Of a stretch of DNA of 64,000 nucleotides, positions 11,678-12,002 are shown one piece after another. This DNA comes from Oscillospiraceae bacterium (lineage in GTDB: Bacteria > Bacillota > Clostridia > Oscillospirales > Acutalibacteraceae), in assembly GCA_902774035.1 (NCBI GenBank), contig CACYHA010000016.1:798-64797 (forward strand), read 5' to 3'. A program made the translations under genes and the position numbers. Numbering within the stretch: the first letter of the stretch is position 1; each line of letters starts with the position of its first letter. The notes beneath the pieces were generated by a model. That model did no database searches. It saw nothing but the letters and a program-made list of their open reading frames with translations, and was not told the origin of the DNA.

Positions 11678-11706
11678 TTGACAGGCATGGCGGCGTATGC
11701 GATAAT
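11678..11706 (+). promoter_or_regulatory. Near-consensus sigma-A promoter firing into the AGCA repeat
   Basis: TTGACA (11678-11683), exactly 17 nt of spacer, GATAAT (11701-11706). Confidence 0.7.
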
Positions 11707-11710
11707 CCTT

Positions 11711-11875
11711 AGCAAGCAAGCAAGCAAGCAAGCAAGCAAGCAAGCAAGCAAGCAAGCAAGCAAGCAAGCAAGCAAGCAAGCAAGCAAGCAAGAGCAAGCA
11801 AGCAAGCAAGCAAGCAAGCAAGCAAGCAAGCAAGCAAGCAAGCAAGCAAGCAAGCAAGCAAGCAAGCAAGCAAGC
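11711..11875. repeat. Tetranucleotide microsatellite (AGCA)n, about 41 units in two blocks
   Basis: Perfect AGCA periodicity at 11711-11792 and again at 11793-11875, with a 2-nt phase shift (extra AG) at 11791-11792. Confidence 0.98.
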
Positions 11876-11911
11876 CGTAACTCTGTCTTTCTTGAATCAC
11901 CTTTGAAAACC

Positions 11912-11955
11912 CGGCTGTAACAAGGCGTGTGCTTTGTTGCGGCCGTTTTTTATTT
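11912..11955 (+). terminator. Intrinsic terminator between the repeat and the surface-protein gene
   Basis: 15-bp stem CGGCTGTAACAAGGC / GCTTTGTTGCGGCCG (3 G-U pairs), loop GTGT, then TTTTTTATTT. Confidence 0.7.
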
Positions 11956-12002
11956 CAAAACCACTGCCTGGGCGCATAAGCAGGCAAAAAGGAGGTAACC
12001 TT

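Follow-up and report, generated by a model that had tools for sequence, protein, structure and literature searches.

A tetranucleotide repeat within a leader reading frame: a candidate phase-variable attenuator upstream of a surface-protein gene in an Oscillospiraceae bacterium

Introduction

What is the role of a long array of AGCA units that lies between promoter-like sequences and a predicted terminator, just upstream of a gene for a leucine-rich repeat (LRR) surface protein? The question is raised by a stretch of DNA of 64,000 nucleotides (nt) from an Oscillospiraceae bacterium (contig CACYHA010000016.1, positions 798 to 64,797); the whole stretch is called the window here, and coordinates are those of the window unless a contig is named. 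The answer that we favor is that the locus is a phase-variable transcription attenuator of the type described for the pil1 pilus locus of Streptococcus gallolyticus, acting through translation of a leader peptide. On the strength of the sequence and of the analogy we consider this probable. Gain or loss of a single repeat unit would then most likely switch the surface-protein gene on or off.

In S. gallolyticus, pil1 and pil3 are each preceded by a ribosome-binding site (RBS) and an ATG that open a leader reading frame containing 22 (pil1) or 13 (pil3) GCAGA repeats, and a stem-loop terminator comes next (Danne et al. 2014, PLoS Pathog, PMC3894217). An out-of-frame change in unit number lengthens the leader, so that its stop codon falls within or beyond the hairpin; the ribosome then blocks termination, and expression of the pilus genes is high. 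Leaders whose stop lies 28 nt or more ahead of the hairpin give low expression; a stop just upstream of the hairpin, inside it or beyond it gives high expression (PMC3894217). In the literature that we searched, these two pilus loci, in one Streptococcus species only, are the experimental cases of phase variation by a repeat, a leader peptide and an attenuator; the same search, which did not cover all journals, found no description of an AGCA cassette or of its spread in the Clostridia. What is new here is the apparent use of the leader-attenuator logic with a different repeat unit, at no fewer than 31 loci, mostly in Clostridia.

Results

The predicted leader and its three exit frames

The elements of the locus, with its leader open reading frame (ORF), are as follows.

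11626 to 11654, plus strand: P1, a predicted sigma-A promoter, TAGACA-17-TG-c-TAAACT, with an extended -10 (consensus scan, 9/12 matches plus TG).
11669 to 11677, plus strand: Shine-Dalgarno (SD) sequence AAAAAGGGG (family consensus AGAAAGGAG), read from the sequence; it ends 9 nt before the ATG.
11678 to 11706, plus strand: P2, a promoter-like site, TTGACA-17-TG-c-GATAAT (consensus scan, 11/12 matches plus TG).
11687 to 11920, plus strand: leader-peptide ORF, by translation MAAYAIIL-(SKQA)n-...-KTRL, 77 codons and a stop as assembled.
11711 to 11875, plus strand: repeat tract (Tandem Repeats Finder and direct reading); orthologous alleles have 23, 43 and at least 58 nt.
11878 to 11880, plus strand: TAA of the predicted OFF frame, ending 32 nt before the stem; reached with one unit more than assembled.
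11904 to 11906, plus strand: TGA of the second frame, predicted ON, 6 nt before the stem; reached with one unit fewer than assembled.
11918 to 11920, plus strand: TAA of the third frame, predicted ON, inside the 5' arm of the terminator; reached with the count as assembled.
11912 to 11955, plus strand: predicted intrinsic terminator (attenuator), with a 15-bp stem at 11912-11945, a 4-nt loop, then TTTTTTATTT.
11991 to 14783, plus strand: GGAGG RBS (11991-11995) and the LRR gene, ATG at 12003; 926 amino acids, with a signal peptide, a BspA-type LRR_5 domain and repeats.

The first-pass annotation of this locus, made from the letters of the window, had held that the ORFs through the tract lack credible starts. 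A start is present: the ATG at 11687 stands 9 nt after AAAAAGGGG, and the SD-ATG arrangement is conserved in three alleles of the locus, in which the G run of the SD, the TTGACA and the ATG are identical and the one difference is an A/G in the A-run of the allele L188. The ORF that begins there spans the whole tract, 11711-11875, so that, as at pil1, a leader ORF with an RBS and a start codon contains the entire repeat.

The tract is made up of (AGCA)20 at 11711-11790, AG at 11791-11792, (AGCA)20 at 11793-11872 and AGC at 11873-11875; the two blocks of about 20.5 units with a 2-nt phase slip that had been noted are thus, put exactly, two perfect 20-unit blocks split by AG. Tandem Repeats Finder reports a period of 4, 41.8 copies and a score of 316 for the array, which is the only tetranucleotide tract of five or more units in the 64-kb window. 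The AGCA tract has no stop codon in any of its three frames, each of which encodes SKQA. Because a unit of 4 nt, like the pil1 unit, is not a multiple of three, the gain or loss of one unit by slipped-strand mispairing would rotate the ribosome among three exit frames, and the end point of the leader ORF shifts with the unit number. One exit stop lies 28 nt or more before the hairpin and the other two lie next to it or within it, which is the frame arrangement of the pil1 type.

The terminator had been called strong at first pass, and its 15-bp stem followed by TTTTTTATTT bears this out: the predicted folding energy of the 85-nt terminator region is -27.2 kcal/mol (z = -4.9), a value that none of 200 shuffles reached. 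Its sequence is the same in two other alleles, L001 and L187, and in L188 up to the contig end at the stem. Downstream of it, a consensus scan found no promoter-like site before the ATG at 12003, in agreement with the annotation's LRR gene that has a GGAGG RBS and no promoter of its own. By prediction, then, a terminator precedes the gene with no later promoter, as in the pil1 type, and the LRR gene must depend on read-through since it is without its own promoter; the suggestion that the tract lies in a transcribed leader, with LRR expression dependent on terminator read-through, gains support from this. All three frames of the tract close within 45 nt of its end, and the LRR ORF has its own RBS and its ATG 128 nt downstream. 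The repeat does not lie within the regulated reading frame, as it does at in-ORF contingency loci, and a translational fusion of leader and LRR protein is ruled out, every frame being closed. A further idea, that pairing of the repeat with the 3' arm of the terminator (UGCUU..UUGC) effects antitermination, was dropped; on inspection the complementary sequences occur in the window and not at the other loci inspected.

How might such a leader work? The mRNA from P1 would have as its first cistron the short ORF that starts from the SD and the ATG at 11687 and holds the whole (AGCA)n. In the OFF frame the ribosome would halt at the TAA at 11878-11880, the stem would form, most transcripts would end near 11955, and the LRR gene would be low or OFF. 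In an ON frame the ribosome would halt within the 5' arm of the stem or 6 nt short of the stem, and so would mask that arm while RNA polymerase reads the T-tract. With the 5' arm masked, termination would fail and the LRR surface-protein gene would be transcribed. The use of P1, the translation of the leader and its effect on termination are what we infer from the layout.

Length variation at the orthologous locus

Does the repeat change in length between strains? When metagenomes were scanned with the sequence of the 3' repeat junction, two orthologous contigs of project JAEEGL01, L187 and L188, came to light; a third contig, L001 (ENA ERZ28613750, STEW19-1 scaffold_178), encodes an identical LRR protein and breaks off within the repeat, 58 nt into the AGCA tract. 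At this one locus the repeat measures 23 nt in L187, 43 nt in L188, at least 58 nt in L001 and 165 nt in the window, that is, at least four length states, and the comparison among relatives proposed at first pass thus shows a tract that varies between strains. From the upstream promoter to the LRR gene, the flanks in L187 and L188 are nearly identical to those of the window. Both of these contigs, whose repeats are short and reliably assembled, use the OFF frame (the equivalent of the TAA at 11878-11880), and the window is in a different frame. Differences in unit number between strains therefore include out-of-frame ones, as at pil1, the count in the window being itself uncertain. In an alignment of the three alleles, substitutions are concentrated in the predicted 5' untranslated region (5'UTR) between the P1 -10 and the SD; the difference of L187 is a 2-nt indel, from which no evidence of coding constraint can be drawn.

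The unit count of the window is not to be trusted, because an independent assembly breaks inside the repeat and a scaffold gap interrupts the repeat of the related locus in an isolate genome. A tract of 165 nt is presumably longer than short sequencing reads. The presence of the tract, on the other hand, is borne out independently by three further contigs. Might the array then be a neutral hypermutable microsatellite, or an artefact of assembly, with no regulatory role? Assemblies that break or gap within the tract, and an unreliable unit count, are in keeping with such a view. However, the tract is found at the same place in four independent contigs and is the single such tract in 64 kb, and the cassette recurs with conserved flanking signals at 31 or more loci, mostly in Clostridia. 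Because the architecture is conserved, we find the neutral explanation scarcely credible.

A family of AGCA cassettes

Scans for (AGCA)8 found 66 loci in a virus collection and at least 119 in species-representative genomes; the size of the family is a lower bound, and its loci are partly homologous to each other. Among the matches listed, many are classical in-ORF repeats, in type I restriction-modification subunits, in phage methyltransferases and in lav/autB of Haemophilus and Neisseria. About 40 listed loci share the layout of the window, and at least 31 are of the design with a detectable terminator, mostly in Clostridia. The hosts of this layout are mostly Oscillospiraceae, Lachnospiraceae, Christensenella, Ruminococcus, Vescimonas, Flintibacter, Lachnoclostridium and Defluviitaleaceae, from gut, rumen and termite gut, and they include the cultured Lachnoclostridium sp. 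An131, Flintibacter muris DSM 110149 and the mouse isolates 1XD8-76 and D16-76.

The shared layout begins with an extended -10, TGnTAWAAT, followed 30-50 nt later by the SD AGAAAGGAG, a TTGACA and, about 3 nt after that, the ATG. Some seven codons, which double as the -10 hexamer, lead into (AGCA)n, and a TAG or TAA follows the repeat within a few nt. There follow a pyrimidine-rich box, a strong terminator and, 25-50 nt further on, a gene with its own RBS. Are these flanking signals more frequent than chance would have it? The set used for this comparison comprised the 82 non-redundant listed AGCA loci that have no long open frame after the repeat (non-coding) or that lie at a contig end, with no pre-selection on flanking signals:

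SD with ATG or GTG in a frame open into the repeat: 37% observed, 6% in shuffles.
P2-like site scoring at least 9/12 at the P2 position: 46% observed, 2% in shuffles.
Upstream extended -10 (TGnTAnnnT at the P1 distance): 35% observed, 10% in shuffles.

The SD-ATG start is thus enriched in the family at large, and it occurs together with P2 at 24 of the 82 loci. An OFF and an ON frame are both present at all of the listed loci with a detectable terminator (31/31; 22.3 ± 2.3 when the spacers are shuffled, with a maximum of 29 in 500), and at 26 of the 31 a stop codon starts no more than 6 nt from the end of the repeat (16.6 ± 2.4 in shuffles, maximum 23). As assembled, about 14 listed loci are in the early-stop frame and about 8 in the long frame, a mixture that switching loci would be expected to show.

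What genes would be controlled? A downstream ORF was called at 27 listed loci, and 17 of the 27 proteins pass a simple test for an N-terminal signal or hydrophobic segment; at least one of the 17, a TetR-like protein (L078), is a false positive of that test. Pfam searches with ten downstream proteins, chosen for a visible signal or anchor, gave Big_2, InlB B-repeat, GLUG, DUF6273 and pilin N-methyl domains. In a minority of cases the downstream gene is one for a regulator or a membrane protein. Many cassettes thus appear to precede secreted or surface proteins of Ig-like, LRR, InlB-repeat or pilin-like kinds, which fits a contingency role.

Several variants were met in the same scans. In L102, an Oscillospiraceae metagenome-assembled genome, the series SD-TTGACA-GTG-...-GACAAT-(AGCA)21 lies directly after the stop codon of the upstream gene (about 2300-2420 of that contig, minus strand) and continues in frame into the gene for an acyltransferase-3-like membrane protein, giving a classical in-ORF switch from the same 5' module. 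Compound tracts are seen in L167, where (AGCA)n is followed directly by (AAGG)n, in L144, (CCAG)n(AGCA)n, and in L168, where (AGGTG)n follows (AGCA)n; a viral contig, L042, has two tandem promoter-(AGCA)n units. In diverse Proteobacteria (L019, L027, L145, L155, L164, L166, L171, L175 and L176) the (AGCA)n stands at a conserved ..YYRDALLxF.. junction; by their flanking sequence the host genes look like type I restriction-modification genes, presumably for phase-variable specificity or modification subunits.

Two promoter-like sites and the alternatives that they suggest

The near-perfect promoter that had been seen at 11678-11706 is indeed there, with 11/12 matches and a TG extension. This site, P2, overlaps the SD-ATG spacer and leader codons 1-7, and its predicted start is inside the first repeat units. 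Taking it as the start of the unit, as had been proposed, would exclude the ATG; we look instead to P1, which is conserved. P1 has a predicted transcription start near 11661, upstream of the leader ATG, and is found in both L187 and L188; the homology between the window and L187 begins at the P1 -35. The stronger promoter-like P2 would start downstream of the ATG. The tract lies downstream of both predicted promoters, so that the locus is not a switch in which the repeat sets a promoter spacer. How much weight should P2 be given? In 2 kb, five promoter-like matches were found where 2.3 ± 1.6 are expected, and a single match is not beyond chance; P2 carries weight because it is conserved across loci. 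L102, whose repeat is joined to a gene within an operon, has P2; L091, which keeps P1, the SD and the ATG, has lost it. Because L091 does without it, P2 appears dispensable; the sequences indicate that it is neither necessary for the cassette nor obviously its main promoter.

Could P2 fire into the repeat all the same, to make an untranslated leader or a small RNA of about 240 nt that begins with (AGCA)n and ends at the terminator? Read-through would then be set by the length of the tract, by an RNA-binding protein that recognizes the repeat or by RNA processing, on the lines of the 5'UTR repeats of uspA2 and hmw1A. The case for such an RNA is the quality of P2 (11/12 plus TG), its enrichment, the highest of any signal in the family (46% against 2%), the Proteobacterial loci that have P2 and the repeat without SD or ATG, and the documented existence of transcribed repeats upstream of genes that tune expression (PMC7302503; PMC12721329). 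Yet an untranslated leader leaves unexplained the conserved extended SD with its ATG, and equally the near-universal stop right after the tract and the OFF/ON geometry of the frames; there is no P2 in L091, and the L102 module is fused to a gene inside an operon. Nor was an RNA-binding antiterminator gene seen among the eight neighboring ORFs scanned, and the repeat is unable to fold alone. Rfam, against which this alternative also found no family, gave no match at the gathering score over the whole window, and a permissive search of 11400-12100 gave hits at chance level (E > 2). Binding of the array by TRAP, Hfq or KH-domain proteins was dropped: to our knowledge their motifs and spacing do not suit the array, and we know of no such gene nearby. 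All told, we regard an untranslated leader as unlikely. Transcripts from P2 may serve to titrate a protein, or as a stand-alone repeat RNA, as the first-pass annotation had it; nothing found here points to either.

A composite is also conceivable, in which both promoters are active. The transcripts from P1 would constitute the translated switch, and for the P2-like element three roles can be imagined: to pause RNA polymerase in a sigma-dependent manner, so that a ribosome can load before the polymerase reaches the repeat; to add transcription through the tract and so raise slippage; or to pair with a TTGTCAA-containing 3' box and close the leader. P2 and SD-ATG do occur together at 24 listed loci, and at hmw1 a change in repeat number requires transcription (PMC12721329). 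Many family members have, 3' of the repeat, a box (CTGCGCYCTTTTGTCAACC, for example) whose sequence complements that of the SD-TTGACA region, and by RNAduplex the upstream and downstream flanks are more complementary than shuffles (mean z of -0.87 over 27 loci, extreme -3.3). However, the window itself shows no significant complementarity (z = -1.07), several loci have none at all, sigma-dependent pausing is hypothetical in these organisms, and the whole is speculation atop the attenuator model. We therefore hold the composite to be decidedly unlikely. The same flanks had brought to mind an invertible promoter with inverted repeats, GGTTGACAA ... TTGTCAACC; this was rejected, because the complementarity is short, many members lack it and in the window it does not reach significance, and neither an inverted allele nor a recombinase was seen.

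Other features of the window

Divergent from the leader, at 10308-11246 on the minus strand, lies a gene for a ParA/MinD-like ATPase. Might the array be centromere-like and serve this ATPase? The L187 cassette has a different upstream neighbor, and the cassette recurs beside unrelated genes, so the idea was set aside. An exact-protein look-up of the ParA-like gene returned no record, and so no additional alleles. Upstream of P1, at 11465-11660, pieces of a small ORF can be read in two frames, ..DQDILQALEAKQKK.. and ..KADLNRVTGELFRDLKKF. A longer N-terminal version of it is found in L188 (1910-2100 of that contig), and the whole region is missing from L187; the small ORF is probably a frameshifted or decaying gene. 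A GC-rich hairpin (ggcacgc...gcgtgcc) follows an A6 at 11351-11382, and on the minus strand it reads as a terminator-like hairpin with a T-run, in intergenic DNA.

Downstream of the LRR gene, a protein with a LytTR DNA-binding domain is encoded at 15087-15965 on the opposite (minus) strand, between two LRR genes. Two genes downstream of the regulated LRR gene, 16080-17738 (plus strand) encodes a 552-residue protein with a eukaryote-type ubiquitin domain (PF00240, E = 1.4e-27, residues 82-151) together with LRR and Listeria-Bacteroides repeat domains, and this gene is also present in the independent contig L001. Elsewhere in the window are a tRNA-Trp/tRNA-Met pair at 23283-23441 (minus strand) and a lone 5S rRNA gene at 35473-35590 (plus strand).

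Discussion

The anatomy of the leader, its conservation, the variation in its length between strains and the geometry of its frames are observations, and they are what commends the attenuator model. What weighs against the model? At any single locus, chance alone is fairly likely to leave a frame open as far as the hairpin, and since the unit count of the window is unreliable, the present frame of the window allele is uncertain. P1 is a weak match to the consensus, at 9/12 plus TG. P2, which shows the strongest enrichment in the family (46% against 2% in shuffles), would give transcripts that lack the start codon, and the model leaves P2 without an explanation. Proteobacterial loci such as L143, L121 and L156 have P2 and the repeat without SD or ATG and must work differently, probably in a mode like that of the uspA2-type 5'UTR repeats. 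The partial homology among family loci means that the shuffle statistics overstate independence. Finally, the attenuator model is a prediction from sequence.

Is the cassette a unit in its own right? A broader proposal, which we put forward tentatively and with a good deal of doubt, is that the Clostridia of gut and rumen widely share a phase-variation cassette that is conserved and portable, with the embedded near-consensus promoter as a functional part of the switch. The order of parts would be P1, the extended SD, TTGACA, ATG, about seven codons that include the -10, (AGCA)n, a stop, the 3' box and the terminator. P2 could cause a sigma-dependent pause by which the first ribosome is coupled to RNA polymerase, or it could be a second promoter; as a second promoter it could make an untranslated (AGCA)n RNA or drive instability of the repeat. 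If the cassette is portable in this sense, many surface proteins of uncultured commensals would be switched stochastically by one design.

The consequences of the attenuator model, if it is true, are of some interest. Surface-antigen heterogeneity in major commensal lineages would arise from a simple element that is recognizable by sequence alone, and its ON and OFF states could be read straight from metagenomic reads. The breaks that assemblies show at such sites would be explained. The signal peptide of the regulated protein would be unaffected by switching, unlike the case of in-ORF repeats. Because several family members are cultured, the attenuator model is directly testable.

Comparison with known systems

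How does the locus compare with systems already described? In type III toxin-antitoxin loci such as ToxIN, a promoter, tandem repeats, a terminator and a gene follow one another, with units of about 36 nt, structured antitoxin RNAs and an endoribonuclease. The likeness of the window to ToxIN is confined to this order of elements, the window having a 4-nt unit and a gene for a secreted LRR protein. A type III system was accordingly rejected for the window, with a 4-nt unit set against one of about 34-40 nt and a downstream protein that has an LRR_5 domain and a signal peptide and is not an endoribonuclease.

The in-ORF loci, among them lav/autB of Haemophilus and Neisseria with GCAA/AAGC, phase-variable methyltransferases and hsdS, have the same unit and share the principle of frameshifting by slipped strands. 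At those loci the repeat is inside the regulated gene, whereas in the window every frame closes and a terminator intervenes before the LRR gene.

In the pyrBI leader of E. coli, the position of a ribosome decides whether a hairpin forms. Likewise, the position of the ribosome on the leader ORF of the E. coli trp operon decides whether the terminator hairpin forms (PMC3894217), and the LRR leader would act in the same way. The input to trp and pyrBI is physiological, namely tRNA charging and the level of UTP, whereas that of the window would be a heritable and reversible frameshift.

Repeats upstream of surface-protein ORFs are known from Moraxella catarrhalis uspA2, where (AGAT)n, 132 bp upstream of the ORF, exerts its effect on transcription (PMC7302503), and from Haemophilus influenzae hmw1A, where (ATCTTTC)n is transcribed within the 5'UTR (PMC12721329). 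The window resembles both in the placement of its repeat, and in uspA2 and hmw1A the length of the repeat changes expression. These loci differ from what we propose for the window: they work by the length of the tract, by the structure of the RNA or by processing with RNase III, and descriptions of them mention neither a leader ORF nor an attenuator.

The closest relatives remain pil1 and pil3. The geometry of a repeat inside a transcribed leader, between a promoter and a terminator, had seemed unusual at first pass; it equals the published pil1/pil3 arrangement of leader peptide, repeat and terminator (PMC3894217). The differences are real. The unit is AGCA, of 4 nt, rather than GCAGA, of 5 nt; the host belongs to the rumen and gut Clostridia rather than to Streptococcus, and the gene controlled would be that of a BspA-type LRR protein, not those of a sortase pilus. 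The window has a near-consensus promoter-like element between the SD and the repeat, and many family members have a 3' box. For pil1 and pil3 the switch was shown by experiment, whereas our system is known from its sequence. The likenesses extend to the whole plan: a promoter, an RBS and ATG opening a leader that contains the entire repeat, a unit that is not a triplet, a terminator, and a gene for a surface structure with its own RBS. In both, the stem-loop lies 30-40 nt after the stop of the OFF frame, an out-of-frame change moves the stop into the hairpin or next to it, and the repeat number differs between strains. Apart from the start of transcription, which is ambiguous, each pil1-type feature for which a sequence can be inspected is found in the window.

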